Shown piece after piece: positions 2,328-26,679 of a stretch of DNA of 32,000 bases (positions are counted from its first letter, which is position 1; every line of letters starts with the position of its first letter). Made by a program: the position numbers and the translations under genes. The stretch is from positions 1,650,001 through 1,682,000 of the forward strand of contig NZ_CP060715.1 of NCBI RefSeq assembly GCF_014396165.1, in the 5' to 3' direction. The notes below the pieces were generated by a model that saw only the letters and a list, made by a program, of their open reading frames with translations, was not told where the DNA came from and ran no database searches. This DNA comes from Erysipelothrix inopinata (GTDB lineage Bacteria; Bacillota_I; Bacilli_A; Erysipelotrichales; Erysipelotrichaceae).

Positions 2328-3463
2328 CTAATTGGTTTTATGATTAATTTCCTCCATGATTGATTCTAAAAGCTTCTTTTCTGAATCACTAAATTCCCGT
2401 TGATTTTGGTGCTTGAAGAAATTTTCAAATTGATCTGTAGGTGAAAGATTGAGTACTTCTGTTGCTTCTTGAAGACGTACGTTGTCACTACTACTCAAAT
2501 TGTGATATTGGATTGAAATGATGTTTGGATAAAATTCCTTAAGTTTACTTTTGGGATCATAAATTGTTTCTTCATCCTCTAAAACAGCTTGAATAAAATC
2601 TTCGCTGTATTGTGCATGCTCGATGAGAGCATTAAAAGGCCCTTTGATAATACGGACGTCCCTTTTGGGAATCAGTGGAAGAAGTTCAATGCTTATTTCC
2701 TTTTCATCAAGTGTAATGTAAGGCATTGACTTATGATCTTTTGCTTCAGAGAAAGAATATTTCAAGGGTGATCCTCCATAGCGAATTGTTTCTTTACGAA
2801 GTTTTTGTGGACGATGGATGTGTCCCATTGCTACATAGTTAAAATCGTTTAAGTAGTTGATGTTGATTGCATCAAGTCCCCCTACTTGCGGTCCGATTTC
2901 TGAATCGGAGAGCTCGGGTTGTGTCATTCCATCAATAAAGAATTGATGGACAATTGCGATGTTCCGTTCAAGGGGTTTAGGTTAATGCCCTTGATAACAT
3001 GTTTAAAGGCATCATCATAAGTTGAACCTGTGAAGTCAGGGTCTATATTTTTAATTGTACTTGCTCGTAAGAAAGGAATGGGATAAAAGTTAACCGGTCC
3101 CCATTCATCAAAAATAGATATCGGTACGATTGGAAGTTCGAATCGCGAAATAAGATGAATCTTATGATCGATAAATAGCTTATCTCCTACTCCTAGACGT
3201 TCAACAGAGTCGTGATTTCCAGAAATAATGATGACTTCATAATTTTCCTTAGAAAACGCAATTAAAAGTTCATTCCAAAGTGTGAATGATTCTGAACTTG
3301 GTGCAAAACGATCATAAATGTCACCTGCTACAATCACAACATCCACATCTCTACTCCTAATTTCTTCAAGTATTTGGTTAAATATATAGCGTTGGTCTTC
3401 AATGAGACTGACGTCTTCAAACCTTTTCCCGATATGTAAGTCCGATAGATGAATGATTTTCAT
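2328..3463 (-). pseudogene. sbcD: SbcD/Mre11-family nuclease, interrupted by a single-base frameshift. It could be a true pseudogene or an assembly error.
   Basis: ORF 2924..3463 carries the N-terminal calcineurin-like phosphoesterase motifs (HLSDLHIG, VIVAGDIYDR, SGNHDS). ORF 2328..2927 carries the rest (GGLDAIN..., AMGHIHRPQ). Shifting frame at about 2972-2975 restores a continuous ...NLNP(L)ERNIAIVHQFFIDGMTQPELSDSEIGPQVGGLDA... typical of intact SbcD. Confidence 0.8.
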
Positions 3464-3566: not shown

Positions 3567-4190
3567 ATGACTGAAAAAGAGAGAATGTTATCAGGGCTTT
3601 TGTACAAAGCTAATGATGAAGAACTAAGACGAGATTCGCATCGTTGTCGTATGTTTAATCACGAATATAATCAAACAACCGTTTTAGACATTCCGCGCCG
3701 AAAGGAAATCATTAAAGAATGGCTTGGATCTGTGGGTGAACATGTTGTACTCGTTCCACCAGTCTATTTTGATTATGGAAATAACACCTATATTAAAGAT
3801 GATTTCTTTGCAAATGCAGATCTTATCATCCTTGATGTCGCTCCAGTTGAAATTGGGAGTCGCGTCATGATGGGACCACGAGTTGGACTCTATACTGCAG
3901 GACATCCAATTGACGCAGCTATTCGTAGTGAGGATTTAGAATTTGGTAAAAAAATTGTGATTGAAGATGATGTCTGGTTAGGTGGTAATGTAGTCGTTAA
4001 CCCTGGAGTTACTATTGGCGCTCGTTCAGTCATTGCTTCAGGATCGGTTGTGACAAAGGACATCCCTTCCGATGTGGTTGCGGGTGGCGTCCCTTGCAAA
4101 GTGATTCGCAAGATTACTGAAAATGACCGTGTCGAATGGCAAAAAGAAAAAGATGAGTACCTTGCCTATCAACTAACTAAAGGAATTTAA
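3567..4190 (+). CDS. maa: Maltose/galactoside O-acetyltransferase family (left-handed beta-helix hexapeptide acyltransferase)
   Basis: The N-terminus MTEKERMLSGLLYKANDEELRRDSHRCRMFNHEYNQT is the typical Maa/LacA N-terminal domain. Hexapeptide repeats (VWLGGNVVVNPGVTIGARSVIASGSVV) follow. The track ORF starts at 3555, but a GGAGG at 3557-3561 sits 5 nt before the ATG at 3567, so I prefer 3567. Confidence 0.8.
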   Translation: MTEKERMLSGLLYKANDEELRRDSHRCRMFNHEYNQTTVLDIPRRKEIIKEWLGSVGEHVVLVPPVYFDYGNNTYIKDDFFANADLIILDVAPVEIGSRVMMGPRVGLYTAGHPIDAAIRSEDLEFGKKIVIEDDVWLGGNVVVNPGVTIGARSVIASGSVVTKDIPSDVVAGGVPCKVIRKITENDRVEWQKEKDEYLAYQLTKGI

Positions 4191-4211
4191 TACCAATTAT
4201 TCTATTCCAAT

Positions 4212-4241
4212 AAAAAAAGCTGAAACTTTCAGCTTTTTTTA
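4212..4241. terminator. Bidirectional rho-independent terminator shared by the convergent acetyltransferase gene and the dlt-like operon
   Basis: The sequence aaaaaaGCTGAAActtTTCAGCttttttt is a perfect stem flanked by an A-run on one side and a T-run on the other. It starts at the stop codon of the 4239..5201 gene. Confidence 0.75.
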
Positions 4242-5201
4242 TACGTGTCGATTCTTTTTCTTAGCAATAATATCAGAATATTCCTTATAATTGCTTTTCC
4301 AAGTTTCGAAATTTGGGTCATCTTTTTTATTTACGAGTTCGGTATTATTCGAAAGGTATTCAGCAAGATAGTTACTTACTTTTAAGGCACCACTGTAGTT
4401 TAAATGATCTCCTGCGTCATAAGTGTCGGTGTTCCAATCAATACCAACTTCATTTAATAATAAATTTAAATCGAGATAATCTATATTATTGTTTGATGCA
4501 ATTTTAGAAACTGCATTATGCTTCGTGTAAGTCCAATTTGATGGACTTGGTGCAGAATAAATAACGATTTTAATATCATGTGATTTTGCGAAGTTGAGAA
4601 TTTTCTCGATGCTTTGTCTCTGGTAACCAGGTATCTTATCTGTTTTTTCTGATTCTCTGACATAGTTCCCTTTGGTGTAAGGTTTTACATCAACTGTATA
4701 ATGATACCCTTTGAGTGGACTTAGAGATGGTTTTTCAGGCTTATCTCTTTTTTTATCGTGCTTCACATAGGACTTCCAATTGTTATGATCTGCGAAGATT
4801 GGGAAGAATTGAGAGAAAAAATCACCGATATTCTTCTCTATCTCATTAACCATTCCTTTATCTCTAAAGAAAAAGTTTGATTCAATGAGGAGCACTTTTG
4901 GTTTTTGCTTTGTTAAAGCTGTTTCGAGGTCTTCAAATCCTTTTAAAAGCGATTGAGCAGAACTTCCGATGTTATAGCCAACATAACCCTTTGTATTCCA
5001 TATCTCCATTGGAGATACCGAGGAATAAGCCTCACTATCACCTAGGATTAAATAGTCCATGGTATTATCTTGTTCTGCAAGAACTCCCTTTAATGCTTTG
5101 GGTTCATCTGAAGGCTTGAGCACACTTGAGAAAGCAACAAGCAATAAAGAAAGGATAATGAGAAATAGAATACTTTTGAATATATTTTTATGCTTTTTCA
5201 T
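4239..5201 (-). CDS. Membrane-anchored extracytoplasmic SGNH/DltD-like acyl-transferase or esterase, copy 2 (last gene of the operon)
   Basis: It has an N-terminal signal-anchor (IFKSILFLIILSLLLVAF), a block-I-like LGDSEAYSS motif and a C-terminal DAGDHLN motif (candidate Asp/His). It is a paralog of 7128..8072, about half identical by eye. The SD TAGGAGG overlaps the stop codon of the upstream MBOAT. Confidence 0.65.
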   Translation of the reverse strand: MKKHKNIFKSILFLIILSLLLVAFSSVLKPSDEPKALKGVLAEQDNTMDYLILGDSEAYSSVSPMEIWNTKGYVGYNIGSSAQSLLKGFEDLETALTKQKPKVLLIESNFFFRDKGMVNEIEKNIGDFFSQFFPIFADHNNWKSYVKHDKKRDKPEKPSLSPLKGYHYTVDVKPYTKGNYVRESEKTDKIPGYQRQSIEKILNFAKSHDIKIVIYSAPSPSNWTYTKHNAVSKIASNNNIDYLDLNLLLNEVGIDWNTDTYDAGDHLNYSGALKVSNYLAEYLSNNTELVNKKDDPNFETWKSNYKEYSDIIAKKKNRHV

Positions 5202-5210
5202 GTTATCCTC

Positions 5211-6800
5211 CTAAAATCCTGCATAGATGATATCTACAGGTGCATACCCGTTACCATATGCTCCAAAAATTACGATTACTAAAATAAATGTGTAGGTCAG
5301 ACTCCAACGTGCCCATGTTGGCCACGTGATAACCGTTTGGAATGGATCGAACCCCTTCTCTTTCAACATATCAACTGCGAAGACGACGATAACTGCAATG
5401 AGGACTACTGCTATATCGACGATGTTGAAAGCAGGAACACTGTTTAGTCCATTTACAAAATATGAAAGTCGAAATTTAAAGATGACATTTTTAAACATCA
5501 TAATGAGCTTTTGGATACTTTCGACTCTGAAGATTAGCTCACCAAAGATAATAATCACAGACATTTTTACTGTTTGAATAAACCTTAAGGTGAACGGATG
5601 TTGATCTAACTTCAAGACGTCTTTAATTTTGATAAATACCGGTTCAAATATAAGAGCTAATGTGATTAAGGTAAAATAATACATTCCGTATAAAACAAAA
5701 TTCCATCCAGCACCATGCCAAAAGCCATTGCAAAGCCAAACAACAAACAATGCAATTGCATTCGTAATGATAAGCGACGCATTTTTACCGAATTTTTTTC
5801 GTGTTTTCTTTGTCAGTGATTTAATATGGCGCGAAAGCATAACTGGATAAAAGACATAGTCCTTTAACCATGCTCCAAGTGTCATATGCCAGCGTTTCCA
5901 AAATTCTGTAACAGTCTTAGCAAAGAATGGTTGGCGAAAGTTTTCAGGTACTTTAATATTGAATATATCACTGGTTCCGATACAAATATCAACGATACCG
6001 GAAAAGTCCATATATAATTGGATAGTATAAATGAGTGCTCCAAACAAGATAACTGATCCTGAAAAATTACTATGATTCACATCAAGGATTGCGGAAACAA
6101 GTGCATTGAGACGATCCGCGATTACTATCTTTTTAAAGAATCCCCAGATGATTCGTTGCAAACCGCCACTAAGCGATGTCATTGTAATAGGATTCCCAGC
6201 ATATAATGATGGCGCAATATCGTTATATCTTGTAATCGGTCCCTGCATGATAGTTGGAAAAAAACAAAGATAGAGACACAATTTTAGAAAGTTCTTTTCG
6301 GGTTGAATGACACCTCTATAAATATCCACGCAATATGATATTGCCTGAAGTGAATAGAATGAAATCCCCAGTGGAACAATAAATTTCATAATTGGAATTT
6401 CAACACCAAAAGAAAGTGATGAAACTATTGTTTGGACGTTTTTAGAAATAAAGGGTGAATATTTCAATACAATCAGAATAAGAAGTACGAACCCAATAAC
6501 TATTTTCAAGAAATGTCTCTTTTTAATGAGTGCTTGTGTCTTTAATTCACGGAGATTCTGACTTGCTTCATCCTCTTTAGGAATACTTTTAGAATCGATA
6601 TGACTGATACCCAATCCGAATAAATATATCAACAACGTCGTAAGTAAAACAAATACAAATTGCCACTTACTGATTAAAATATAGAATACAAAACTTGAAA
6701 ACAGTAAAACCCCCCAGCGAAACTTTTTAGGGGCTAACTGATAACTTAGTAGTGTAATGGGGAGAAAAAGTACAAAATATACGGGCGATACGTATGACAC
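5211..6800 (-). CDS. MBOAT-family membrane O-acyltransferase (DltB/AlgI-like) with a C-terminal DltX-like extension, copy 2
   Basis: The protein is polytopic and hydrophobic. It carries the MBOAT signature NFRQPFFAKTVTEFWKRWHMTLGAWLKDYVFYP with the invariant His. The C-terminus is ...FGAYGNGYAPVDIIYAGF. The GTG start at 6800 shares its G with the TAG stop of the carrier gene. Confidence 0.85.
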   Translation of the reverse strand: MSYVSPVYFVLFLPITLLSYQLAPKKFRWGVLLFSSFVFYILISKWQFVFVLLTTLLIYLFGLGISHIDSKSIPKEDEASQNLRELKTQALIKKRHFLKIVIGFVLLILIVLKYSPFISKNVQTIVSSLSFGVEIPIMKFIVPLGISFYSLQAISYCVDIYRGVIQPEKNFLKLCLYLCFFPTIMQGPITRYNDIAPSLYAGNPITMTSLSGGLQRIIWGFFKKIVIADRLNALVSAILDVNHSNFSGSVILFGALIYTIQLYMDFSGIVDICIGTSDIFNIKVPENFRQPFFAKTVTEFWKRWHMTLGAWLKDYVFYPVMLSRHIKSLTKKTRKKFGKNASLIITNAIALFVVWLCNGFWHGAGWNFVLYGMYYFTLITLALIFEPVFIKIKDVLKLDQHPFTLRFIQTVKMSVIIIFGELIFRVESIQKLIMMFKNVIFKFRLSYFVNGLNSVPAFNIVDIAVVLIAVIVVFAVDMLKEKGFDPFQTVITWPTWARWSLTYTFILVIVIFGAYGNGYAPVDIIYAGF

Positions 6801-7030
6801 TATGCTTCGTCTCGCAATCTACACATTAAGTTCCATAATGCACTCGCTGAGTTAAAGTTAGCTGGCACTAAATCGATGGGCGAAATGTCAACATCGAATT
6901 CTGATTCAAGTTCGGTAACGAGTTCAAGAATTGACATAGAGTCTAAATGTCCCCCGTCTACAAGATCGGTTACTGTATCATAATCGATAGTAGGATTAAT
7001 TTGATTTAAAATTGCTAGTAGTTTTTCCAT
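6800..7030 (-). CDS. DltC-like aminoacyl carrier protein (phosphopantetheine attachment site), copy 2
   Basis: The protein reads MEKLLAILNQINPTIDYDTVTDLVDGGHLDSMSILELVTELESEFDVDISPIDLVPANFNS..., with the LDS Ser motif in the DltC position. The track ORF starts at 7063, but an AAAGGAG SD sits 6 nt before the ATG at 7030. That start gives 76 aa, the same length as copy 1. Confidence 0.85.
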   Translation of the reverse strand: MEKLLAILNQINPTIDYDTVTDLVDGGHLDSMSILELVTELESEFDVDISPIDLVPANFNSASALWNLMCRLRDEA

Positions 7031-7127
7031 GTTTGTCTCCTTTAGTATTAAGTATTTCTTCACTTAATATTCTAGTATGTATTGATAACAAATAAGTGTA
7101 AGAATGATGATAAATTGTAAATCACAC

Positions 7128-8072
7128 TTAAGATTTTTTTGCTTTGATTATTTCTGCGTATTTTTGATAATCTTCTTCCCAATTAGTATAATTGGAATTG
7201 TGTCGCAAATCCTCTAAGTTTGTATTCTTTGATAAGTACTCCGATATATATTTTGTAACTTTTAGCGTACCATTAAAATTTAGATGGTCGCCAGCATCAT
7301 AGGTATCTTTGTTCCAATCAATTTCTAATTGTTTCGTAAGTAGATTAAGATCAACGTATTCGCAACCATATTCCTTTGCCAGATCTGCTACTGTATTATG
7401 ATTTGAATAGCCCCAATTTACAGGAGTAGGTGCTGAGTAGAAGATAACTTTTATATCATTGTTATTACAAATTTCCATAATTTGATCAAGAATAAATTTT
7501 TGATACGTTGGTACAGATACTCTATTTTGAGTTGGATTAACATATTCCCCTTTTGTATAAGGTTTTACCTCAAAGCGGTATCGATATCCTTTCAGTGGAT
7601 TTGAAACAAACTCTTGATCATCAAAGGACGGTAATTTTCCTTCTTTGATCATCTTTTTCCAATTTGTATGATCATTAAATATTGAAAAGTGGTTCGTGAA
7701 TAATGTTGATATGAAACTTTCCGCATCATTAATGAACCCTTTGTTTCTGAATATAAAATTAGATTCAATTAATAATATTTTAGGCTTTTGATTCTCAATT
7801 GCTTTTTGAAAAACATCCAACCCTCTCTGAAGTGTTTGTGCGGAAACTCCCAGATTGTAGCCTGTATACCCTCTTTCATTCCAAATTTCCATGGGCGAAA
7901 TAGAAGTATAGGCCTCACTATCTCCGAGAACTAGATAATCAACCGAATTTTCTTTTTCCGATTCAATACCAGATATTTCTTTAACAGAAAATCCCTTTGA
8001 AAGAACCAGTAAAATAAGTCCAAGTATTGTGACAAAGAGTATGAATTTCATAAGTTTTTTTCCTTTTTTCAT
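7128..8072 (-). CDS. Membrane-anchored extracytoplasmic SGNH/DltD-like acyl-transferase or esterase, copy 1
   Basis: It has an N-terminal anchor (LMKFILFVTILGLILLVL), a VLGDSEAYTS motif and a DAGDHLN motif. The SD TAGGAGG overlaps the stop of the upstream MBOAT. Confidence 0.65.
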   Translation of the reverse strand: MKKGKKLMKFILFVTILGLILLVLSKGFSVKEISGIESEKENSVDYLVLGDSEAYTSISPMEIWNERGYTGYNLGVSAQTLQRGLDVFQKAIENQKPKILLIESNFIFRNKGFINDAESFISTLFTNHFSIFNDHTNWKKMIKEGKLPSFDDQEFVSNPLKGYRYRFEVKPYTKGEYVNPTQNRVSVPTYQKFILDQIMEICNNNDIKVIFYSAPTPVNWGYSNHNTVADLAKEYGCEYVDLNLLTKQLEIDWNKDTYDAGDHLNFNGTLKVTKYISEYLSKNTNLEDLRHNSNYTNWEEDYQKYAEIIKAKKS

Positions 8073-8082
8073 TCAAGACCTC

Positions 8083-9672
8083 CTAGAATCCAGCGTAAAT
8101 AATATCTACTGGGGTGTATCCGTTGCCATATGCGCCGAAGACAACAATTGATACTATGAAGACATAGGAAAGTGTCCAACGTGCCCAGATTGGCAAGGAA
8201 TTTAGTTTATCAAGAGGGTTAATATTACGTTCTTTAAGGAAATCTACAATAAATACGAGTATTATTGCAATCAGAACAATCCAAGCGTCCCCTATGTCAA
8301 ACTTGAAACGTGCCAATAAATCTGTAGTGAGCTCAGAAACATTAAAATTAAATAAAATATTCTTGAAAATGATCAATATCTTACGTATACTCTCCACACG
8401 GAATATAAGTTCACCAATCATTATGATTAGTGCCATTTTGGTTGCTTGAATCGTACGTAACAATATCTTATGGTTGTCGAGGTGTAATATTGTTTTGACT
8501 TTTTCCATAAACGGTTCAACAATCAAAGCAAGTGTAATGAGTGTGAAATAATACATCCCATACATGACAAAATTCCAACCTGAACCATGCCAGAATCCAT
8601 TACATAACCAAACCACAAACAACGCAATCGCATTAGTAATAATTAAAGAGGCATGTTTTCCAAACTTTTTACGCGTTTTCTTAGTCAATGATTTAATTCT
8701 TCGGGATAACATGACCGGATAGAATACATAATCTTTCAACCATGATCCCAAAGTAATATGCCAACGTTTCCAAAAGTCAGTCACTGTTTTTGCAAAAAAT
8801 GGTTGTCTGAAGTTTTCGGGAAGTTTGATATTGAAAATTTCGGCGGTGCCTAAACTAATATCTACAATACCGGAGAAATCCATGTAGAGCTGAATGGTAT
8901 AGATTGCTGCCCCTAAAAGCATAATTGAACCTGCAAATTGCGCATTATCAGCATCGATAATTGCAATCACAAGTGAGTTGAGGCGATCAGCAATCATTAT
9001 TTTTTTGAAAAGACCCCAGAAGATTCGCTGGATACCATGAACAAACGAATCGGAGTTAATGGCTGTTCCTGCAAAGAGTGTCTCTTTAACATCACTATAA
9101 CGTGCAATCGGTCCTTGCATAATTGTAGGGAAGAAACTGAGAAAAAGAAGTAATTTAAAATAGTTTCTTTCAGCTGAAACGACGCCTCTATAGACATCAA
9201 CACAGTATGAAATGGCTTGTAAAGAATAGAAAGAGATACCCAAAGGAACCACAAACTTTAATATTGGAACTTTAGCTTCTATTGACAGATAAGCCAGAGC
9301 CGAATTTATAGAAGATGTAATGAAAGGCGCATACTTTAGAACTATTAGTGTTCCGAGGATTATAATAATCGTCCACTTTGTTACCCTCTTCTTTTTGAAT
9401 TGGCTTTGTTGTCTTTCAACAGTCGCAATTTCAGGTTCAAGATCCTGTTTCACTAAGCTTCGTTTCGAAATGAAATCAAGCAACAACCCCGCACTATAAA
9501 TTACGAATGTTGTGATGATTATGATTAAAATCAACCATGAACTTACAAGAAAATAAAATAGCATACTTACCAATAACAACGTTACCCACCGATATTTTGA
9601 AGGGAATACTTGATAAATAAGAAATGTAAATGGCAGAAACAGAGCAAAATAAAGTGGTGAAACGTACGACAC
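8083..9672 (-). CDS. MBOAT-family membrane O-acyltransferase (DltB/AlgI-like) with a C-terminal DltX-like extension, copy 1
   Basis: It carries NFRQPFFAKTVTDFWKRWHITLGSWLKDYVFYP and ends ...FGAYGNGYTPVDIIYAGF. The GTG start at 9672 overlaps the carrier TAG stop (TAGTG). At 529 aa it is the same length as copy 2. Confidence 0.85.
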   Translation of the reverse strand: MSYVSPLYFALFLPFTFLIYQVFPSKYRWVTLLLVSMLFYFLVSSWLILIIIITTFVIYSAGLLLDFISKRSLVKQDLEPEIATVERQQSQFKKKRVTKWTIIIILGTLIVLKYAPFITSSINSALAYLSIEAKVPILKFVVPLGISFYSLQAISYCVDVYRGVVSAERNYFKLLLFLSFFPTIMQGPIARYSDVKETLFAGTAINSDSFVHGIQRIFWGLFKKIMIADRLNSLVIAIIDADNAQFAGSIMLLGAAIYTIQLYMDFSGIVDISLGTAEIFNIKLPENFRQPFFAKTVTDFWKRWHITLGSWLKDYVFYPVMLSRRIKSLTKKTRKKFGKHASLIITNAIALFVVWLCNGFWHGSGWNFVMYGMYYFTLITLALIVEPFMEKVKTILHLDNHKILLRTIQATKMALIIMIGELIFRVESIRKILIIFKNILFNFNVSELTTDLLARFKFDIGDAWIVLIAIILVFIVDFLKERNINPLDKLNSLPIWARWTLSYVFIVSIVVFGAYGNGYTPVDIIYAGF

Positions 9673-9902
9673 TATGCCTCGTCTCGCAATCTACAAATTA
9701 ACTTCCACAATGAATCCATAGAATTGAAATTAGCTGGTATTAAATCTATCGGTGAAATATCGATATCAAACTCTGATTCAATTTCAGTAACGAGTGATAA
9801 GATTGAAAGTGAATCAAGTAAACTGTCATCTACAAGTCCCGTTGCTTTTTCATAATCAATGCTTGGGTTGATTTCTACGAGTATATCTAATAATTTATCC
9901 AT
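9672..9902 (-). CDS. DltC-like aminoacyl carrier protein, copy 1
   Basis: The 76-aa protein reads ...GLVDDSLLDSLSILSLVTEIESEFDIDISPIDLIPANFNS.... It resembles DltC around the LLDS serine. An AAAGGAG SD lies inside the 3' end of the decarboxylase gene. Confidence 0.85.
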   Translation of the reverse strand: MDKLLDILVEINPSIDYEKATGLVDDSLLDSLSILSLVTEIESEFDIDISPIDLIPANFNSMDSLWKLICRLRDEA

Positions 9903-9904
9903 AA

Positions 9905-11089
9905 TTATTGCTCCTTTGCCATGTTTAATGGGTATGTTTCAATCGAATTTCTAACTTTTGTGAGTCCTTTTGCTTCTGAGTAGAAGTATACTTGTGGTAA
10001 GTCGCGACTTAGAAAAAGTGCGATTCCTTCAGTAACTGAGTAGGCTCCTACCTTGTCAAAAATAAGGAAATCTCCTATATTTACATTCTTAAGTTCGCAA
10101 CTCTTTACAAGAATATCGCTTGTCGTGCATAACGCACCACAAAGTGTCCAAGATTCTGTTTCATCGCGTTGCGATACATGAGTTTCAATATGTTTAAAAG
10201 GTGGTGTCTTCATTGCCATTGACTGTCCGAAGTAATTTACTTGGTGCATTCCCCCATTAACGATGGCGATATGAAGGTCACGATGATGTTTTATATCTTC
10301 AATGCGAGTTACGTAGTGACCACAATTAGCGACAAGGTATCGCCCTAATTCTACTGTTACCGGTAAAACTTTTGCTTGTTTCTCTAATGCCTCGTAAAGC
10401 GCAGTCGTCATAACATCCTCAAATTTTTCATCTTCTTCAAAGTAATCGATGGGTAAACCCGGACCATATTCTAACGAAAGTTTGGATGAATCTAAATAGG
10501 GTAAAGAGATGACAAACTCATTGAGTTTTCTAAAGTCTCTTTCATATTTAGTGGCTGCTTTTCGCTGTGTCCCAACAAAATAGTGAATCCCAACTATATT
10601 GAGACTTGGATATTGTGAAATATTTTCGCATATCGAAGTAATATCTGCTTTAGACATTCCAAATTGACTTCCTGAAGATAAACGCAAATAAACATTAAGT
10701 GTGGCATTGAATTCTTGTGAAGCAGCAAAGAGTAGCTCCCAATGTCTTAAAGATTCTGCTGTATAAACGATCGTTGAACCGTACTTTTCCACAACCTTAT
10801 CAATGTCTGACTTTCCTTTAAATACTCCAGAAAGTACAATTTTCGACATATCAATTCCAAGGTCTTCGCAGATATGGAACTCACCAAACGAACAGACCTC
10901 GAAAGTGTCAATATGGGGTTCCAATACTTTCACAAGAAATGGATTGGCCTTCATTGCATAACATAGTTTCGCATTTGAATTAAGATGCTTCCTTACCTCT
11001 GAAATATGGTCCGTAAGTGCATCAACGTCAAAGATATAAGCGGCATGTTCGAATAAATCTTGGTGTTCTAGGATTAGTTTTGAATTCAT
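9905..11089 (-). CDS. Fold-type III PLP-dependent decarboxylase (DapDC/ODC/BtrK-like group IV decarboxylase)
   Basis: Motifs seen: the PLP-lysine motif CYAMKANPF, GIHYFVGTQ, the glycine loop EYGPGLP, ELGRYLVANCG (EPGR-like), CGALCTTSDIL (catalytic Cys region) and VGAYS. An ATGA start/stop overlap joins it to the upstream ligase gene. Confidence 0.8.
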   Translation of the reverse strand: MNSKLILEHQDLFEHAAYIFDVDALTDHISEVRKHLNSNAKLCYAMKANPFLVKVLEPHIDTFEVCSFGEFHICEDLGIDMSKIVLSGVFKGKSDIDKVVEKYGSTIVYTAESLRHWELLFAASQEFNATLNVYLRLSSGSQFGMSKADITSICENISQYPSLNIVGIHYFVGTQRKAATKYERDFRKLNEFVISLPYLDSSKLSLEYGPGLPIDYFEEDEKFEDVMTTALYEALEKQAKVLPVTVELGRYLVANCGHYVTRIEDIKHHRDLHIAIVNGGMHQVNYFGQSMAMKTPPFKHIETHVSQRDETESWTLCGALCTTSDILVKSCELKNVNIGDFLIFDKVGAYSVTEGIALFLSRDLPQVYFYSEAKGLTKVRNSIETYPLNMAKEQ

Positions 11090-12591
11090 AGTGATTGATA
11101 CTCCAGTCTAATTTGTTTTCGGTCAAGCTTGCCATTATTGTTGAGGGGTAAGTTTTCAAATTGCTTGATAATAGTTGGAACCATATAAGACTCAACTTTT
11201 TCAATAAAATATTTCTTCAATTCGGTAGCATCAATTGAACCACTATAACAGAGAATAATTTGATGTTTTTCTTCTATATAGAAGCAACACGCCTGATTTA
11301 CTGATGTATTTTTATAGGCCATAACTTCAATGCCCTCTAATTCAATACGATGTCCCATGTGCTTGATTTGGAAGTCTTTACGACCCACGTAATAAAGCTT
11401 GTTATCGGGCATTCTATATCCCAAATCACCCGTACGATACATGCGTTCAGGATAAACTTTGTTGAGAGGATTTTGTACGAAAAATTTTTCTGTTTGTTCG
11501 GGATTGTTGTAGTAACCCAGGGCAAGACATCTTCCAGTTACACATATCTCCCCTTTTTGTTCGTATTCAGTAATGAGATGATTGGTTTCGTCGAGAAGAA
11601 AGACTTCTTCATTAAGGAATGACTTCCCGATTGGCATCGCATAATCATCATTTAGCGTTTCAGGGATTACTTCATAGGTGCAATTGCATGTAATCTCAGT
11701 AGGTCCGTACAGATTAACGTAAAGAACTGAAGGTAAAGACTTTTGAAGTTTCTTTAGAATGGGTAAAGGCATTTTCTCACCACTAAACATGATTTTATTG
11801 ATATGCTCAGGAACTTTATAACTCAGTCCTTTGAATTGGACGAGCATGCTAAGGGCAGATACGGCCCAGATTAAAGTCGTAATTTCATGATCAATAAGAT
11901 AATCCATTAATGAAGTTATCACAGAAAAGTATCTCTTCGGAATAACAACAAGAGTTGCTCCGGTTGAAAGGGCACTGTATATATCTTTGACTGAAACATC
12001 AAAATCAAAAGGTGCCTGATTTCCAATGATATCTTTATCAGTTATCTTGAAGGTCGTAGTAAATTCATCAATGAAATCAATGACAGAGCCATGACTTACA
12101 ATGACCCCTTTAGGAACACCCGTTGTTCCCGAAGTGAAATTACAATAAAGCGGATCTGTATCTAAAGCAGAACATTGAACTTTATTCAGCACATTTATAT
12201 CAGGTACTTCAGAAATAACATCTTGATAATTCAAGGTTTTTCCTGAATATTGTATTGTTGAAGGAAGGCTTGATTCATATGTAATCATGAGTTTTGCATT
12301 ACTAATATCAAGGATTTGTTGAATTCGTCCTTCATGTTGCTTTGGATCTATGAAAATATAGAAGCACCGTGCATAGGCAACTCCCATGAAGAGGCTCAAC
12401 GCTTCAGGTCCCTTCTCCATAAAAATTATGATTGGGCTTTTGGGTACCATTAGCTTTGAAAATACAGTTCCACTAGACTGCGCATGGTATAAATAGTCGC
12501 CATAAGTTAGTAATTTATCTTCACAGACTATTGCTTTTTTATCACCGTACAGTTCAGCTGTTCTCTCTAAATACTCAGTTATATTTTTCAT
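11086..12591 (-). CDS. DltA-like stand-alone amino-acid adenylating enzyme / carrier-protein ligase (ANL superfamily)
   Basis: Core motifs seen: FTSGTTGVPKGV (A3), NQAPFDFDVSVKDIY (A4), NLYGPTE (A5), YRTGDLG (A7), GRKDFQIKHMGHRIELEGIE (A8, the DFQIK form typical of DltA) and NGKLDRK (A10). At 501 aa it has no C or T domains. An ATGA overlap joins it to the kinase gene. Confidence 0.85.
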   Translation of the reverse strand: MKNITEYLERTAELYGDKKAIVCEDKLLTYGDYLYHAQSSGTVFSKLMVPKSPIIIFMEKGPEALSLFMGVAYARCFYIFIDPKQHEGRIQQILDISNAKLMITYESSLPSTIQYSGKTLNYQDVISEVPDINVLNKVQCSALDTDPLYCNFTSGTTGVPKGVIVSHGSVIDFIDEFTTTFKITDKDIIGNQAPFDFDVSVKDIYSALSTGATLVVIPKRYFSVITSLMDYLIDHEITTLIWAVSALSMLVQFKGLSYKVPEHINKIMFSGEKMPLPILKKLQKSLPSVLYVNLYGPTEITCNCTYEVIPETLNDDYAMPIGKSFLNEEVFLLDETNHLITEYEQKGEICVTGRCLALGYYNNPEQTEKFFVQNPLNKVYPERMYRTGDLGYRMPDNKLYYVGRKDFQIKHMGHRIELEGIEVMAYKNTSVNQACCFYIEEKHQIILCYSGSIDATELKKYFIEKVESYMVPTIIKQFENLPLNNNGKLDRKQIRLEYQSL

Positions 12592-13946
12592 ACTTCGTCC
12601 TCTACTAGTAACGATACCGTCACAATAAATTTACTTGCGGTTTGATGTACTTCAAAGTTACCACCCAGTTGCTGCATAACATTTGCACATGTTTTTAGCC
12701 CAATGTTAGTACTCTTTGAATTCATTTTTCCAATATCTTTAAAATTTTCAAATTCTAATACATAGTTTTCACCACGATCTAAGCCTGTGATAATTACCCC
12801 CTCTTTCAATGCGTAACGACTGATGTTACTAAATAAATTATCAAAGAGACGGTGAAGATACTGAACATCAACGCGTATGACCTTATCGGTTTCTTCAAGA
12901 TTTACAGTTACTTCGAAATCATTTGCCTGAAGATCAAATACTCGTTCATAAATCAATTGAGGCAACAGCACCATAAGTTCGTATTCTTGTGTATTAGTAT
13001 CCATGAATCCTTCATTAAAGTTAAAGGAATATTGGAACATTTTATCGGTAATTAGTTTTAATTGAAGTGTTTTATCTTTACTACGGCTGATATAGTCTCT
13101 TTTCTTTTCTTCACTCAATTCAGGATGTTCATCTAATACCTCCATGTAACCTATCAATGCTGTGAGAGGTGTACGGACATCATGAGACAATTCACTTACC
13201 AGGTCATAATTAGTTTTTACGACTTCTTGTTCTCGTTTCATCTGATCAACCAATGAAAAACGCATAGAATCAACATGATAGGCAAGCTGTGTTAGTTCAC
13301 TACACCCTTCCTTTGTAACAGGATAGTTAATATTTCCACATTCAATTTGTGTTACTTCATCGGAGAGTCTTTTGACTTTACGAATGATTTTATTAGTGAA
13401 TAAAATTTGTAAGAACATAAACATGAGGATTCCAAAGCCTATTGAACCTATTTTGATGAGATTGTACCAAAAGACTTCCGTTGATTCACTGACATATAAC
13501 ATAAAGTTACCATCAGCAAATTGAATATCACGAACAGGATATGCAATGGTCGTCTCTAATACTTCATCGTCAAAACCCTTAACTTCTTCCACAACAGTTT
13601 CATCAAGATAAACAGGATCGGTCTCTGACCAATGACCGGATTCATAAACTACAAATCCCTCTTCATCAATCAAGAAAAGATAAACGTCTGGATTTTGCTT
13701 TATCCATGAGGACATTTTATAGTAGTCCATTGAAGAAAGATTATTATCGACAACATAATCTTCGAATGAATCTTCGTATGCGAGACGTCGTGACTCAACG
13801 GCACTTTGTTTGAGATAAAATTTTTCGATAAGTTGTGCCCCTGTAAGATACAAAATCCAACTAAACAGCGAACAGATAATTAAGCTTATGAGAAAATACG
13901 CAATATGAATTGTTCTTAATCGCTTAAATTTCAAATTTTCCATCAA
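12588..13946 (-). CDS. Sensor histidine kinase: two TM segments flanking an extracytoplasmic domain of about 125 aa, then HisKA plus HATPase
   Basis: TM1 is IHIAYFLISLIICSLFSWILYL and TM2 is IKIGSIGFGILMFMFLQILF. The H-box is SELSHDVRTPLTAL and the N-box is LFDNLFSNISRYA. It overlaps the response regulator gene by 23 nt. Confidence 0.85.
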   Translation of the reverse strand: MMENLKFKRLRTIHIAYFLISLIICSLFSWILYLTGAQLIEKFYLKQSAVESRRLAYEDSFEDYVVDNNLSSMDYYKMSSWIKQNPDVYLFLIDEEGFVVYESGHWSETDPVYLDETVVEEVKGFDDEVLETTIAYPVRDIQFADGNFMLYVSESTEVFWYNLIKIGSIGFGILMFMFLQILFTNKIIRKVKRLSDEVTQIECGNINYPVTKEGCSELTQLAYHVDSMRFSLVDQMKREQEVVKTNYDLVSELSHDVRTPLTALIGYMEVLDEHPELSEEKKRDYISRSKDKTLQLKLITDKMFQYSFNFNEGFMDTNTQEYELMVLLPQLIYERVFDLQANDFEVTVNLEETDKVIRVDVQYLHRLFDNLFSNISRYALKEGVIITGLDRGENYVLEFENFKDIGKMNSKSTNIGLKTCANVMQQLGGNFEVHQTASKFIVTVSLLVEDEV

Positions 13947-14634
13947 TACGATACCCCTTTCCCCATACGGTTTTTATGATTGAATCATTCTGACTTGTAT
14001 CCAGTTTCTTTCTAATATTGAAGATATGAACCATGATAGTATTGTTTGCGGATGCGAAATAAGGTTCATTCCAAATTTCTTCAAACAGTTGTTTCGCATC
14101 GAACACTCTTCCTGGATTGGTAATCAACAAGAATAGGATATCTGCTTCTACAGATGTGAGGTCAATTTTCGAATTATTACGTCGTACTGTTTTGTTTTTA
14201 AGATCAAAGTCAGTTCCTTCAAAGGTCGTAATTGTTTTGTCTTTTTCATTGTATCCATAATTATAAATGCGATAACGTCTGATTAATGCCTCAACCTTAG
14301 CAAGAAGTTCTACTTTAGAAAACGGCTTGGAGAGGAAATCATCACCCCCGTTTGAATAGGCTTCAACAATATCGATCTCTCCAGATTTTGCTGTTAGAAA
14401 TAAAATAGGCGCTTTCGTCATTTCTCGGATCTTAATACACGCTTCAAGTCCGGTGACACGAGGCATCATAATATCGAGAATTATTAAGTCAAAGAGATTA
14501 TTGGAATCGGTGATGATGTCAATAGCATCTTGGCCGTCAACAGCTTCAGAAACATCGTAACCTTTAAATTCAAGTTGCAATCGGATGACTGCACGAATAT
14601 CTTCTTCATCATCAACAATGAGTATTTTTTTCAT
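13924..14634 (-). CDS. OmpR/PhoB-family response regulator
   Basis: The receiver domain has ILIVDDEED, LIILDIMMP (phospho-Asp), LFLTAK and SKPF. The C-terminal winged helix ends TVWGKGYRI. An AAGAGGAGG SD precedes the ATG. Confidence 0.9.
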   Translation of the reverse strand: MKKILIVDDEEDIRAVIRLQLEFKGYDVSEAVDGQDAIDIITDSNNLFDLIILDIMMPRVTGLEACIKIREMTKAPILFLTAKSGEIDIVEAYSNGGDDFLSKPFSKVELLAKVEALIRRYRIYNYGYNEKDKTITTFEGTDFDLKNKTVRRNNSKIDLTSVEADILFLLITNPGRVFDAKQLFEEIWNEPYFASANNTIMVHIFNIRKKLDTSQNDSIIKTVWGKGYRIDGKFEI

Positions 14635-14654
14635 AGATACCTCCTCTTATTTTT

Positions 14655-14717
14655 ATTATAGCATTGGGTTTGGTTTGAAAATATAAGTAGAAACGTTTAT
14701 TAAGAAATATTAAGAAA
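14655..14717 (-). promoter_or_regulatory. Candidate extended -10 promoter (TGcTATAAT) with two perfect tandem 10-bp direct repeats upstream. This is a putative response-regulator operator for the dlt-like operon.
   Basis: On the minus strand, TATAAT lies at 14655-14660 with TG at 14662-14663. TTTCTTAATA TTTCTTAATA lies at 14698-14717, with a third degenerate copy TTTCTACTTA at 14684-14693. Confidence 0.45.
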
Positions 14718-14723
14718 GTCATG

Positions 14724-14957
14724 CTATTGGCCATCTTGTTGTATTTTTTTTATTATAAATTTAGTTAAGAAAAATGAAATAATCAGTGTGCATAGAATGA
14801 GAAAGATAAAAACAGAATCCATCCAAGATGCTTTCTCAGGACTAGGATAATAACCGCCTTCTGATACAATTTCTGAAATCGATGCAATTATATATTCATT
14901 AAAGAGTAGAAATGTAAATACCATTGATATAATAAGTGCTTTTACGTTATTTGACAT
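14724..14957 (-). CDS. Small (77 aa) two-TM membrane protein of unknown function, directly upstream of the two-component system
   Basis: The protein reads MSNNVKALIISMVFTFLLFNEYIIASI...SWMDSVFIFLILCTLIISFFLTKFII. The track ORF starts at 15002, but an AGGGAG SD sits 6 nt before the ATG at 14957. I recognise no homolog. Confidence 0.5.
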   Translation of the reverse strand: MSNNVKALIISMVFTFLLFNEYIIASISEIVSEGGYYPSPEKASWMDSVFIFLILCTLIISFFLTKFIIKKIQQDGQ

Positions 14958-15026
14958 AGTAATCTCCCTATTACTATAGTAATGGCCTGGTGTGAATATC
15001 ATGTGTAATTTTAATGATAAGTCATG

Positions 15027-15062
15027 TAAAAAAGCCTGTACTCATGAAATGTACAGGCTTTT
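15027..15062 (-). terminator. Rho-independent terminator of deoB
   Basis: The minus strand reads AGCCTGTACatttcatgaGTACAGGCT followed by TTTTTT. It begins 15 nt after the deoB stop. Confidence 0.8.
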
Positions 15063-15076
15063 AGGTATTAATAGGT

Positions 15077-16267
15077 TTATTTAAGTAAATTTAAAATTGA
15101 ATGACCGTTTGCAGTAGGTTCAACCCCAAATGCATCAGTGATTGTAGCACCAAGATCTGCGAATGTGTGTGACTTAGGAAGCAATCCACTTCCCTCAAAT
15201 TGAGGTGAATAGAAGAGTACTGGAACCTCTTCTCGAGTATGATCTGTTCCTGTGTGGGTTGGGTCGTTACCGTGGTCAGCAGTAATGATTAAGAGGTCAC
15301 GTTCACCAATAAATGGTAAGAGTTCCCCTAATTGGCCATCAAATTCTTCAAGAGCATCACCATAACCTTGAGGATTACGACGGTGACCAAATAGTGCATC
15401 AAAATCAACGAGATTCACAAACAAGAAACCATTAAAGTCCATATCTTTTACAATACGAATTGTTTCTTCCATACCATGATGGTTTGATTTTGTACGGTAA
15501 GCATCTGTAATGCCTTCATTATCGAAGATATCAACAATTTTACCAACACTAATTACATCATAATTAGCTTCTTTAAGTGAGTCTAATGCAGTTTTTCCAA
15601 ATGGTTTTAAAGCGTAGTCATGGCGGTTAGGAGTACGTGTGAATTCTCCTTTACCAGGTCCTACGAATGGTCGTGCAATAACACGCCCTACTTTCCATTC
15701 ATCACGCATTGTAAGTTCACGTGCAATCTCACAGCAGCGATAGAGTTCTTCAAGACCAAATGTTTCTTCATGAGCAGCAATTTGTAATACAGAGTCAGCA
15801 GAAGTATAAACAATCATATCTCCTGTTTTCATATGTTCTTCACCAAGTTCATCAAGAATAACGGTTCCACTTGATGAGTAGTTACCGATGATACCATGTC
15901 CGGTACGAGCAGTTAGTTCATCAAGTAATTCTTTAGGGAATCCTGTCTCTGTAAAAGTAATGAATGGGTTTTGGATATTTAATCCCATCATTTCCCAGTG
16001 TCCTGTCATGGTATCTTTACCATTTGACGCTTCAATCATCTTAGTATAATAAGCAGCGGGATGATCTACTTTCTTAACACCTTTTATTTCATGGAGATTT
16101 CCAAGACCAAGTTTTTCCATATTTGGCATCTTTAAACCACCAACAAATTCAGCAATATGTCCGAGTGTATCGGTACCTAAATCGCCAAATTTTTCTGCAT
16201 CGTGTGCTGCGCCAGCACCGACAGAATCCATAACAATTGTAATGATACGATCAAATCTCTTCGTCAT
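15077..16267 (-). CDS. deoB: Phosphopentomutase
   Basis: The protein has [38 protein letters not shown] and ...[22 protein letters not shown]. The track ORF starts at 16321, but an AAGGAGGA SD precedes the ATG at 16267, which matches the normal DeoB N-terminus. Confidence 0.9.
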
Positions 16268-26200: not shown

Positions 26201-26679
26201 CCTAAAGTTTCGTTTTCAGCATAATTTGTTACACTGTTATTCTCATCTTCAGTGACAAGTTCCATTTCTAATGGATTAACAATATAATCCCGAAATATTT
26301 CAAACTCTTGATATGTGATACTTTCTAGTGAATAAATTAATGAATGTGTGATAGAAATATGATTGAATCCGAGCATGGTATGAACCATTTCTTCAACTTG
26401 GTCTTCGATAAAATCATATTGTCCTGAAATATGTTTTATCTTGAAATGAGTTCTTGGTAAACTTGGTACACTATCGTAGATAATACCAATAGGTTCTTTA
26501 AAAATTTGGTTTTTGATTGTATCGAGTTCGAATGAATTTGCATTTTCAATCTCAAATACGTGAAGAATTCTCACGGATTTAAGTGTTTGTAGTTTTAAGT
26601 AATTTGTAGCTTCAATAACAAGTCTACGACCTTCGTGGTTGTAGTTAGAAAAACGTTCTGTAATAATGGTTCGACCCAT
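23294..26679 (-). pseudogene. purL: Single-chain (large-type) FGAM synthase split by a single-base frameshift. It could be a true pseudogene or an assembly error.
   Basis: ORF 24871..26679 (602 aa) holds the N-terminal domain and the first synthetase half (YWSDHCRHTTF, ETHNHPTEVEPYGGASTCIGGGVRD, GRTGRDGLGAA). ORF 23294..24847 (517 aa, TTG start in the track) holds the second half and the C-terminal GATase-like domain. Shifting frame at about 24876-24881 gives a continuous ...DPLNKASQKGLREQFNGQYLDFHNNTPQLGMMSY.... Confidence 0.85.

Follow-up and report, generated by a model that had tools for sequence, protein, structure and literature searches.

A putative Dlt-like pathway with a probable carrier-dependent decarboxylase in Erysipelothrix inopinata

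Proposed pathway

The genome of Erysipelothrix inopinata (contig NZ_CP060715.1) contains, in a stretch of 32,000 nucleotides between positions 1,650,001 and 1,682,000, hereafter called the window, a densely packed cassette of genes, all on the minus strand. They encode a stand-alone adenylation enzyme, hereafter called the ligase, a pyridoxal phosphate (PLP) dependent decarboxylase, small carrier proteins, membrane-bound O-acyltransferases (MBOAT) and SGNH-fold transferases, together with a response regulator and a histidine kinase. The cassette probably specifies a Dlt-like, two-component-linked pathway in which an acidic amino acid is loaded, decarboxylated on the carrier and exported as a cationic acyl group to a polymer of the envelope. 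The gene order, the gene overlaps, the motifs and folds of the products and their conservation across genomes are direct results of the analysis.

In the first step of the pathway, the ligase would adenylate an acidic amino acid and thioesterify the holo-form of a carrier protein of 76 amino acids. The substrate would most likely be L-Asp, activated through its beta-carboxylate, and after that L-Glu, activated through its gamma-carboxylate, with Asp198 of the ligase predicted to bind the amine and Lys202 the free carboxylate. The PLP decarboxylase, whose translation is coupled to that of the ligase, would then strip the free alpha-carboxylate from the tethered residue, giving a beta-alanyl-S-carrier or a 4-aminobutyryl-S-carrier. 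Homology and motifs suggest that, at the cytoplasmic face of the membrane, the carrier hands its acyl group to the MBOAT, which transfers it onto the Tyr of its own C-terminal sequence IIYAGF at the outer face. Finally, the SGNH-fold protein would accept the acyl group on Ser52 and pass it to a hydroxyl group of a surface polymer, for example a teichoic acid or another glycopolymer.

Adenylation pocket of the ligase

The ligase (501 amino acids, 11086-12591, minus strand; Pfam AMP-binding, E 2.7e-56) has the architecture of DltA with a different pocket. Its A4 pocket helix, NQAPFDFDVSVKDIYSAL (residues 190-208, 11968-12024, minus strand), aligns without gaps to DltA (3fcc/3e7w). An earlier reading of the window, made from the sequence only (hereafter the sequence-only reading), had aligned this region residue for residue with Bacillus DltA, and HMMER gave the same gap-free alignment with DltA of B. 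cereus (3fcc/3dhv, 'nqapfsfdlsvmdiypsl') and of B. subtilis (3e7w), the string being the one given in that reading. Residue D198 (Stachelhaus position 235; 11998-12000) lies opposite D197 of DltA and was invariant in 81 homologous ligases. Residue V199 corresponds to position 236, and K202 (position 239; 11986-11988) lies opposite the Met of DltA and was Lys in 81/81 ligases. Both the retention of Asp235 and the exchange of Met239 for Lys, as noted in the sequence-only reading, thus extend to all the ligases compared. Since these are only about 40-50 % identical overall, an invariant Lys239 is no chance substitution: within this distinct family of ligases it is a conserved feature of specificity. 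The Met which DltA has at position 239 contacts the methyl group of D-Ala, that is, the side chain of the substrate (PMC11253843), which would place Lys202 of the window ligase at a pocket-lining position.

The ten Stachelhaus positions were mapped in GrsA numbering through alignments to LgrA and DltA, and gave the code D-V-K-I-M-S-L-C-N-K for the window ligase. The residue identities are consistent with those published (PMC11253843). The same alignment gave D-L-M-T-L-C-T-V-A-K for B. cereus DltA, so that only Asp235 and Lys517 are common to the two (2/10). Among the 81 ligases, the code is DVK[ITV][LMI]S[LIV]CNK, with D235, V236, K239, S301, C330, N331 and K517 invariant. Where the D-Ala pocket of DltA has Leu236, Met239, Cys301 (C269 of B. 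cereus) and Val330, the window ligase has V, K, S and C. Position 235 holds the sole acidic pocket residue in the 81 ligases, and apart from D235, K239 and the invariant K517 no pocket residue is charged. The lack of any acidic pocket residue other than D235 makes a basic substrate, for example Lys or Orn, less likely.

The scores of the ligase with the curated DltA models were well below their cutoffs (TIGR01734, 267.1 bits, cutoff 559.85; NF003417, 291.9 bits, cutoff 476), and its best sequence matches in the PDB were LgrA and GrsA, followed by DltA. The arrangement of a stand-alone adenylation domain with a small carrier and an MBOAT as neighbours is nevertheless that of DltA. The ligase scored 190 bits with TIGR03098 (cutoff 592) and is nearer to the amino-acid adenylation and DltA models. 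A phmmer search with the ligase against 1.84 billion representative sequences returned giant multi-module nonribosomal peptide synthetases as its top 150 matches, the summed scores of which swamped the single-domain relatives.

Bulky substitutions at positions 236 and 301 have been noted for enzymes which activate beta-amino acids, such as F231/S299 in VinN and A236V in TycA (PMC11253843). The window family combines Asp235 with bulkier residues at these positions (D, V and S, all invariant). The same V/S pair occurs in Ser-type codes, however, and is not diagnostic.

A basic residue (Arg or Lys) at position 239 is a feature of Glu codes and of the microcystin adenylation domains for iso-linked methylaspartate and Glu, and Arg239 is that of the ACV-synthetase domain which activates the delta-carboxylate of aminoadipate. 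Such cases would agree with a role of a basic residue at this position in binding a distal carboxylate or an alpha-carboxylate. The specificity codes DAKDLGVVDK, DPRHSGVVGK, DARHVGIFVK and EPRNIVEFVK were not found in the literature searched, nor were the Lys-containing Asp/Glu codes invoked in the sequence-only reading confirmed there.

The PLP decarboxylase and its relatives

The decarboxylase (394 amino acids, 9905-11089, minus strand) is a fold-type III PLP enzyme of the clade which contains diaminopimelate decarboxylase (DAPDC), BtrK and SbnH. Both of its Pfam domains, Orn_Arg_deC_N and Orn_DAP_Arg_deC, scored above threshold, and all the catalytic motifs listed in the sequence-only reading were present: YAMKANP with the PLP-binding Lys K47 (10949-10951), EYGPGLP, ELGR (E247/G249/R250), LCTTSD with the catalytic Cys C321 (10127-10129) and D325, and GAY (Y350). 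Residues K47, G209, G211, E247, G249, R250, C321, D325 and Y350 were invariant in an alignment of 20 sequences of the family. Searched against the PDB, the family profile scored highest with BtrK (167.5 bits, E 3.9e-48) and SbnH (166 bits, 1e-47), followed by LysA (143 bits, 1e-40). BtrK is the decarboxylase of the L-glutamyl-[BtrI carrier] and SbnH that of N-citryl-diaminopropionate, likewise a conjugated substrate. Together with AcsE, MccE, FigC and DAPDC they form one clade acting on conjugated amino acids (PMC7857480). The best NCBIfam match was TIGR03099, the 'exosortase A system-associated' decarboxylase (161 bits, cutoff 478). None of the longer homologues was a fusion of decarboxylase and carrier, the additional length being low-complexity tails or inserts.

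In DAPDC, an Arg of the specificity (3-10) helix (R343 of the M. jannaschii enzyme) binds a carboxylate of diaminopimelate (DAP), and in DAPDC and ornithine decarboxylase an acidic residue beside the catalytic Cys binds the side-chain amine (PMC7857480). The window enzyme has GGIHQLNYYGQ at the specificity helix and the family GG(I/M)HQ(L/V)NY(Y/F)GQ, whereas LysA has GMNDLIRPSIY. The catalytic loop is C-T-x-(S/N)-D in the family and C-E-T-G-D in LysA, C-T-P-E-D in BtrK and C-T-P-K-D in SbnH. The family and BtrK have in common the C-T pair, the GGxH sequence (GGMHHH in BtrK) and an aromatic residue where the motif HxHxG(S/T)Q has its second His. The loss of both DAP determinants counts against a LysA-like role and, more weakly, against a tethered DAP substrate. 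Identity with housekeeping lysA or with alanine racemase was rejected because of the curated cutoffs and the loss of motifs.

Most fold-type III decarboxylases act on free amino acids, and the enzyme could do the same with meso-DAP, Asp or Glu, leaving the ligase to load the resulting Lys, beta-Ala or GABA (4-aminobutyrate), an alternative which the sequence-only reading had also listed. Its score of 141.4 bits with the LysA equivalog TIGR01048, and the label of diaminopimelate decarboxylase which some sources give to its homologues, would agree with such a route, but it appears unlikely. The score is far from the cutoff of 297.9, and the enzyme has neither the Arg of the specificity helix nor an acidic residue after the Cys. 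The closest solved relatives, BtrK and SbnH, use conjugated substrates, and CtaF and VinO need the thioester. A pocket with an invariant Lys and D235 as its only acid would also fit Lys poorly, and the pocket Lys would be without purpose for beta-Ala or GABA, neither of which has a side chain.

It is very unlikely that the enzyme is instead a racemase or epimerase, or a beta-decarboxylase, which provides a D-aminoacyl (e.g. D-Ala-like) unit and hence a product similar to that of D-alanylation. Several homologues are named 'alanine racemase' by NCBI, the barrel matches Pfam Ala_racemase_N (E 1.3e-12) and Dlt uses a D-amino acid. However, the alanine racemase equivalog TIGR00492 gave 20 bits against a cutoff of 168, and the C-terminal domain is Orn_DAP_Arg_deC, the beta-sheet domain of decarboxylases. 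The Cys loop, the EPGR-like motif and GAY are invariant, and the matches of the family profile listed from the PDB at E <= 1e-10 were decarboxylases in 44 cases out of 44. The ligase, moreover, lacks the D-Ala determinants of DltA, with C269 replaced by Ser and both L198 and the Met changed.

Decarboxylation of a carrier-bound amino acid by PLP enzymes, for which the sequence-only reading had named the vicenistatin and butirosin systems, is documented for both of these and for a third; in each, the system was reconstituted experimentally, and the fold-type III decarboxylase acted on acidic amino acids only when these were bound to the carrier. In vicenistatin biosynthesis (VinN/VinL/VinO), the adenylation enzyme loads 3-methylaspartate and VinO decarboxylates only the thioester (PMC11284099); FlvN activates Asp in the manner of VinN. 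The butirosin enzymes BtrJ/BtrI/BtrK convert Glu to GABA on the carrier, BtrK being carrier-dependent (PMC7183216, PMC7857480). In closthioamide biosynthesis, CtaD/CtaE/CtaF convert Asp to beta-Ala, and free Asp is no substrate of CtaF (PMC7183216).

Candidate substrates

Of the possible substrates, we infer that Asp, giving a beta-alanyl group, ranks first, Glu, giving GABA, second, and DAP, giving Lys, third. I/L/M/L and Ser fill the pocket, which makes a short substrate probable. Free GABA thioesters readily form lactams, hence the gamma-glutamyl protecting group in butirosin biosynthesis, and this favours beta-alanyl over GABA as the final donor. Asp was placed first because of this lactamisation, the short pocket and the retention of D235 as in VinN and FlvN.

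The option of DAP and a lysyl product, also raised in the sequence-only reading, is disfavoured by the loss of the specificity-helix Arg and of the acidic residue beside the catalytic Cys. In its tethered form, meso-DAP would be loaded via one alpha-carboxylate and the distal carboxylate removed, giving a lysyl-S-carrier (possibly D-lysyl) and, after export, a doubly cationic ester. The decarboxylase belongs to the DAPDC clade, the ligase loop appears as long as in alpha-amino-acid enzymes, the distal carboxylate could be bound by K239, and loss of the Arg would be expected if the DAP carboxylate which it binds is thioesterified. The distal amine would remain, yet in about 95 % of the family, and likewise in BtrK and SbnH, Thr stands in place of its acidic ligand; the pocket offers no acid for a second amine, and the bulky I/L/M/L at positions 278, 299 and 322 suggest a short substrate. 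We consider tethered DAP quite unlikely.

Gene arrangement and apparent translational coupling

The stop codon of the ligase gene and the start codon of the decarboxylase gene share an ATGA ('cactATGAattc'), an overlap already noted in the sequence-only reading, as was the Shine-Dalgarno sequence of the first carrier gene within the 3' end of the decarboxylase gene. The latter is AAGGAG (9911-9916, minus strand) in the last decarboxylase codons, 8 nucleotides from the ATG of carrier 1 (9902-9900), the decarboxylase stop codon being at 9907-9905. Each MBOAT gene has a carrier gene immediately 5' of it, the stop and start codons overlapping by 1 nucleotide.

The first gene of the unit encodes an OmpR-type response regulator (13924-14634, minus strand; Pfam Response_reg and Trans_reg_C), and the second a membrane histidine kinase (12588-13946, minus strand) with the Pfam domains HAMP and HisKA. 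A further ATGA (12588-12591) joins the end of the histidine kinase gene to the start of the ligase gene. This overlap suggests that translation of the sensor is coupled to that of the biosynthetic genes within a single operon, as opposed to a regulator acting on a separate promoter. A scan of 3900-15300 for promoters and terminators gave only background levels. A hydrophobic open reading frame (ORF) of 92 amino acids without a Pfam match (14724-15002, minus strand) lies just upstream of the response regulator gene.

Carriers, MBOATs and SGNH-fold transferases

Carrier 1 (76 amino acids, 9672-9902, minus strand) has its phosphopantetheine attachment site at Ser31 in LDSLS (9810-9812), and S31 was conserved in 84 homologues. 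Carrier 2 (6800-7063, minus strand), with its true start likely to be Met12 at 7030, is 71 % identical to carrier 1.

MBOAT 1 (529 amino acids, 8083-9672, minus strand) matched Pfam MBOAT and has a DltB-like core, and MBOAT 2 (5211-6800, minus strand) is 62 % identical to it. The DltB equivalog TIGR04091 was the only NCBIfam match of the two proteins (152.8 and 153.9 bits), and both scores were below the cutoff of 375. The catalytic-His motif WHITL/WHMTL is present in both, as WHITL in MBOAT 1. The MBOATs are about 125 residues longer than DltB, and both end in ...DIIYAGF, with IIYAGF at 8086-8103 (MBOAT 1) and 5214-5231 (MBOAT 2). A C-terminal [FLIP]xYxxF was found in 67/68 MBOAT homologues, the first F being mostly replaced by I or L. 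In the Dlt system, the 'acyl shuttle' hexapeptide FxYxxF is on the microprotein DltX, whereas PatA, AlgI and related MBOATs bear it themselves, on two additional helices. The Tyr of the motif carries the acyl group covalently towards the SGNH partner, a role experimentally established for PatA and DltX (PMC12148441). Elsewhere such motifs are known from DltX or as fusions to MBOATs that use acetyl-CoA. No separate DltX microprotein with FxYxxF was found at the locus, and there is no room for one because the histidine kinase and ligase genes overlap. The MBOAT system of the window thus appears to be a hybrid, with the carrier-protein donor of Dlt and the fused shuttle of PatA.

The next protein (SGNH-fold transferase 1, 314 amino acids, 7128-8072, minus strand) had no significant match among Pfam and PDB sequences, even with a profile. 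Its fold was recognised by structure prediction with AlphaFold2 on 41 homologues followed by Foldseek. The model (mean pLDDT 90.2) has an N-terminal transmembrane helix (residues 2-28), and its matches were TesA and GDSL lipases (E about 1e-7), DltD (6pfx, 5e-5) and PatB (7tlv, 5e-5). Residues G50-D51-S52, D259, D262 and H263 were invariant in the homologues, both D259 and D262 being candidates for the Asp of the triad. On the model, this membrane-anchored protein is the predicted functional counterpart of DltD and PatB. Its sequence is 100 % identical to that of an E. inopinata protein.

The carrier, MBOAT and SGNH genes form a triplet in tandem duplicate (4239-9902, minus strand) served by a single ligase and a single decarboxylase. 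The second transferase (320 amino acids, 4239-5201, minus strand) is 48 % identical to the first and so is the most diverged of the three duplicated proteins. The two sets suggest two acceptor polymers, both supplied by the single ligase and decarboxylase, and the divergence of the transferases agrees with this. The same duplication occurs in the closest Erysipelothrix metagenome-assembled genome (locus L007), and E. aquatica (locus L008) has one set.

Distribution and linkage in other genomes

Relatives of the decarboxylase were sought in one genome per species, and at least 551 species genomes encode one. Most of these belong to Lachnospiraceae (Lacrimispora, Anaerocolumna, Hungatella, Blautia and Dorea), Clostridium (C. 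septicum, C. cadaveris, C. carnis and C. collagenovorans), Erysipelotrichaceae, Oscillospiraceae and Paenibacillaceae, and one is a metagenome-assembled genome of Treponema. Rare strains of Enterococcus faecalis carry a relative as well.

Gene neighbourhoods were counted in the best 80 loci. Ligase, decarboxylase and carrier genes adjoined each other, in a constant order and on one strand, in 80/80 loci as far as the contig left room; they were present in 79, 80 and 78 of the 80, respectively, the three exceptions being contig ends. In the other loci, the earliest start codon available to the decarboxylase gene mostly overlapped the end of the ligase gene or followed its stop by less than 10 nucleotides. 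An MBOAT gene was found in 65 of the 80 loci and the gene of the 314 amino acid protein in 53, while the pair of response regulator and histidine kinase occurred in 37, 36 of which also had the MBOAT.

In E. faecalis (locus L003), the cassette adjoins an IS605-family transposase/TnpB gene (366-1274), and the response regulator and histidine kinase genes are downstream rather than upstream, which suggests horizontal acquisition. In C. septicum (locus L001, 870-3640 / 12780-15580), the cassette has on one side fragments of another acylation system of the MBOAT/DHHW-ALGX type, and on the other an MGDG-synthase-like glycosyltransferase, a polysaccharide deacetylase and LPG_synthase_TM, an MprF-type flippase. 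With the cassette these flanking genes form a cluster of envelope-modifying functions.

In about a dozen loci of Lachnospiraceae (L027, L036, L057, L078, L079 and L086 among them), the trio of ligase, decarboxylase and carrier occurs without an MBOAT, between a hexapeptide (LbH) acyltransferase and a DegT-type sugar aminotransferase (e.g. L079, 900-14900). Nearby genes encode a UDP-sugar dehydrogenase, a UDP-GlcNAc 2-epimerase, glycosyltransferases, an EpsG-type polymerase and a DUF6077 protein, a set which we take to resemble the WbpA/B/D/E/I route to 2,3-diamino-uronic acids. By this analogy, the aminoacyl-carrier is likely to be used there for N-acylation of a diamino-uronic acid sugar. The ligase code in these polysaccharide clusters, DVKTMSLCNK, is unchanged except for I278T. 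The occurrence of the same trio and code in both settings points to a portable module making one special acyl-carrier donor. Such a portable trio is hard to square with a housekeeping decarboxylase, and its strict linkage in two unrelated transfer contexts also speaks against decarboxylation of a free amino acid.

All thiotemplated fold-type III decarboxylases characterised so far belong to secondary-metabolite pathways, and the cassette might, like those for butirosin and closthioamide, make a diffusible natural product instead of decorating the envelope. The cassette has none of the genes for condensation, ATP-grasp, transglutaminase or tailoring enzymes, however, and the partners of the trio are either a DltB-like MBOAT with a shuttle Tyr and a membrane-anchored SGNH protein, or polysaccharide genes. 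The link to a two-component system is, in addition, frequent in loci for envelope remodelling. A diffusible product is scarcely credible on these grounds.

Weight of the evidence

The core of the sequence-only reading, i.e. that the ligase and the coupled decarboxylase act in the decarboxylation of an acidic amino acid tethered to a carrier, is the interpretation best supported by all the computed evidence. The trio was never separated, the pocket Lys is invariant, unlike in DltA, and the family profile is nearest to BtrK and SbnH, not to LysA. There are precedents in VinN/VinL/VinO, BtrJ/I/K and CtaD/E/F, and the trio also occurs in the unrelated context of polysaccharide transfer. Decarboxylation on the carrier itself is a prediction from sequence, and the shorter beta13-beta14 loop, the hallmark of VinN, was not seen in the alignments. 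The shuttle motif fused to the MBOAT, the SGNH partner and the duplication were not part of the sequence-only reading.

Several points weigh against the proposed pathway, the first of which concerns this loop. In VinN, the conserved Asp holds the amino group, and K330/R331 on a beta13-beta14 loop shorter by one residue bind the free carboxylate (PMC11253843). The window ligase showed no gap in this region when aligned to LgrA, DltA or a Pro ligase, and its residues at positions 330/331 are C/N, not basic as in VinN. As no shortening was seen, activation of a beta-carboxylate is a putative property of the ligase, and if it does activate a side-chain carboxylate, its solution would differ from that of VinN. 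Lys239 could equally serve a Glu or Asp activated at the alpha-carboxylate, which would leave nothing for a PLP alpha-decarboxylase to remove, or could in principle be structural, for instance by forming a salt bridge with D235, which is one turn of the helix away. To our knowledge, the pocket code matches no known code. Carrier 1 gave only weak DltC and acyl carrier protein (ACP) matches in NCBIfam and remained below the Pfam (PP-binding, 20.6 bits, cutoff 20.8) and NCBIfam thresholds, and the bit scores of BtrK, SbnH and LysA with the family profile are not far apart. Substrate, acceptor and regiochemistry of loading are all predictions from sequence and structure comparisons.

Genes flanking the cassette

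The cassette is flanked by housekeeping genes, namely sbcCD, a maltose-type acetyltransferase, phosphopentomutase, xerD, a purine operon, dinB and recN. The sbcD gene is present as two overlapping ORFs on the minus strand, one of 179 amino acids with a Metallophos domain (2924-3463) and one of 199 amino acids with an SbcD_C domain (2328-2927); the split (2328-3463) reflects either a frameshift that made sbcD a pseudogene or a natural division of the gene. The FGAM synthase region of the purine operon (23294-26679, minus strand) also consists of two ORFs. The first (24871-26679) contains AIRS_C together with the FGAR-AT linker, and the other (517 amino acids, 23294-24847) has a faint GATase_5 match (E 4e-4), which is unusually weak for a pur gene.

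Significance

No published description of the cassette was found in full-text searches of the literature, which returned only papers on Dlt, on PatAB or on unrelated subjects. The only prior trace is the exosortase-associated pair TIGR03098/TIGR03099, annotated as 'hypothetical equivalog' in NCBIfam. Both parts are known separately; what appears to be new here is the joining of Dlt-type MBOAT/SGNH acylation with thiotemplated PLP decarboxylation.

D-alanylation by Dlt is the textbook means of reducing the negative charge of the Gram-positive surface. It confers resistance to cationic antimicrobial peptides, lysozyme and some antibiotics, and is a drug target. We tentatively suggest that the surfaces of many Bacillota (at least 551 species genomes; gut Lachnospiraceae, Clostridium, Erysipelotrichaceae) may carry an undescribed cationic group, likeliest an ester-linked beta-alanine made from an aspartyl-S-carrier and exported by what would be the first carrier-dependent MBOAT with a built-in shuttle Tyr. 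As part of the same suggestion, the trio may also N-acylate a diamino-uronic sugar in capsule or cell-wall polysaccharides of Lachnospiraceae, making them zwitterionic.

If this is true, a second widespread two-component-linked aminoacyl pathway would exist beside Dlt, and surface charge and host interaction would have to be reread in gut commensals, and likewise in pathogens like Clostridium septicum and certain strains of Enterococcus faecalis. A beta-amino ester would probably resist hydrolysis better than a D-alanyl ester. Thiotemplated PLP decarboxylation would reach from antibiotic biosynthesis into primary envelope biology, and the generalisation that Dlt alone among MBOAT/SGNH systems uses a carrier protein (PMC12148441) would be contradicted.

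Comparison with known systems

The window shares with the Dlt system (DltA/DltC/DltB/DltX/DltD) a stand-alone adenylation enzyme with near-identical A4 framing, a small carrier, an MBOAT with a DltB-like core and a membrane-anchored SGNH-fold transferase, as well as the underlying principle, by which an aminoacyl group passes from a thioester in the cytoplasm to a polymer outside the cell. It differs from Dlt in the pocket, which agrees with that of DltA at 2/10 positions and has Lys for Met and Ser for the D-Ala-selecting Cys, and in the presence of a PLP decarboxylase between ligase and carrier, the absence of DltX and the duplication of carrier, MBOAT and SGNH protein. All the window proteins are far below the Dlt equivalog cutoffs.

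The VinN/VinL/VinO and FlvN modules likewise combine an ANL-type loader of an Asp-type acid, in which the amino-binding Asp is kept, with a stand-alone ACP and a PLP decarboxylase. In VinN, however, the basic pair K330/R331 is on the shortened loop, whereas the window ligase has its basic residue at position 239 and C/N at 330/331. The Vin product goes to a polyketide synthase, whereas that of the window would go to MBOAT/SGNH export or, in other genomes, to polysaccharide genes. The BtrJIK and CtaDEF systems resemble the window in having a fold-type III decarboxylase of the DAPDC clade beside a loader and a stand-alone carrier, and BtrK is the best solved match. They load with ATP-grasp ligases and extend iteratively, whereas the window has an adenylation enzyme and no chain-building genes.

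The exosortase-A pair TIGR03098/TIGR03099 (function unknown) is similar in that an AMP-ligase and a fold-type III decarboxylase are encoded together at loci for surface polysaccharides. The scores of the window proteins are far below its cutoffs (592 and 478), the partner genes differ, and the pair is found mostly in Proteobacteria, unlike the Bacillota cassette. With the O-acetyltransferases PatA/PatB and AlgI/AlgJ the window shares an MBOAT which carries its C-terminal Tyr hexapeptide on extra helices and has a separate SGNH partner. Those systems are described as having no carrier protein and an acyl-CoA donor (direct for PatA; PMC12148441), whereas the window encodes a carrier, a ligase and a decarboxylase of its own.

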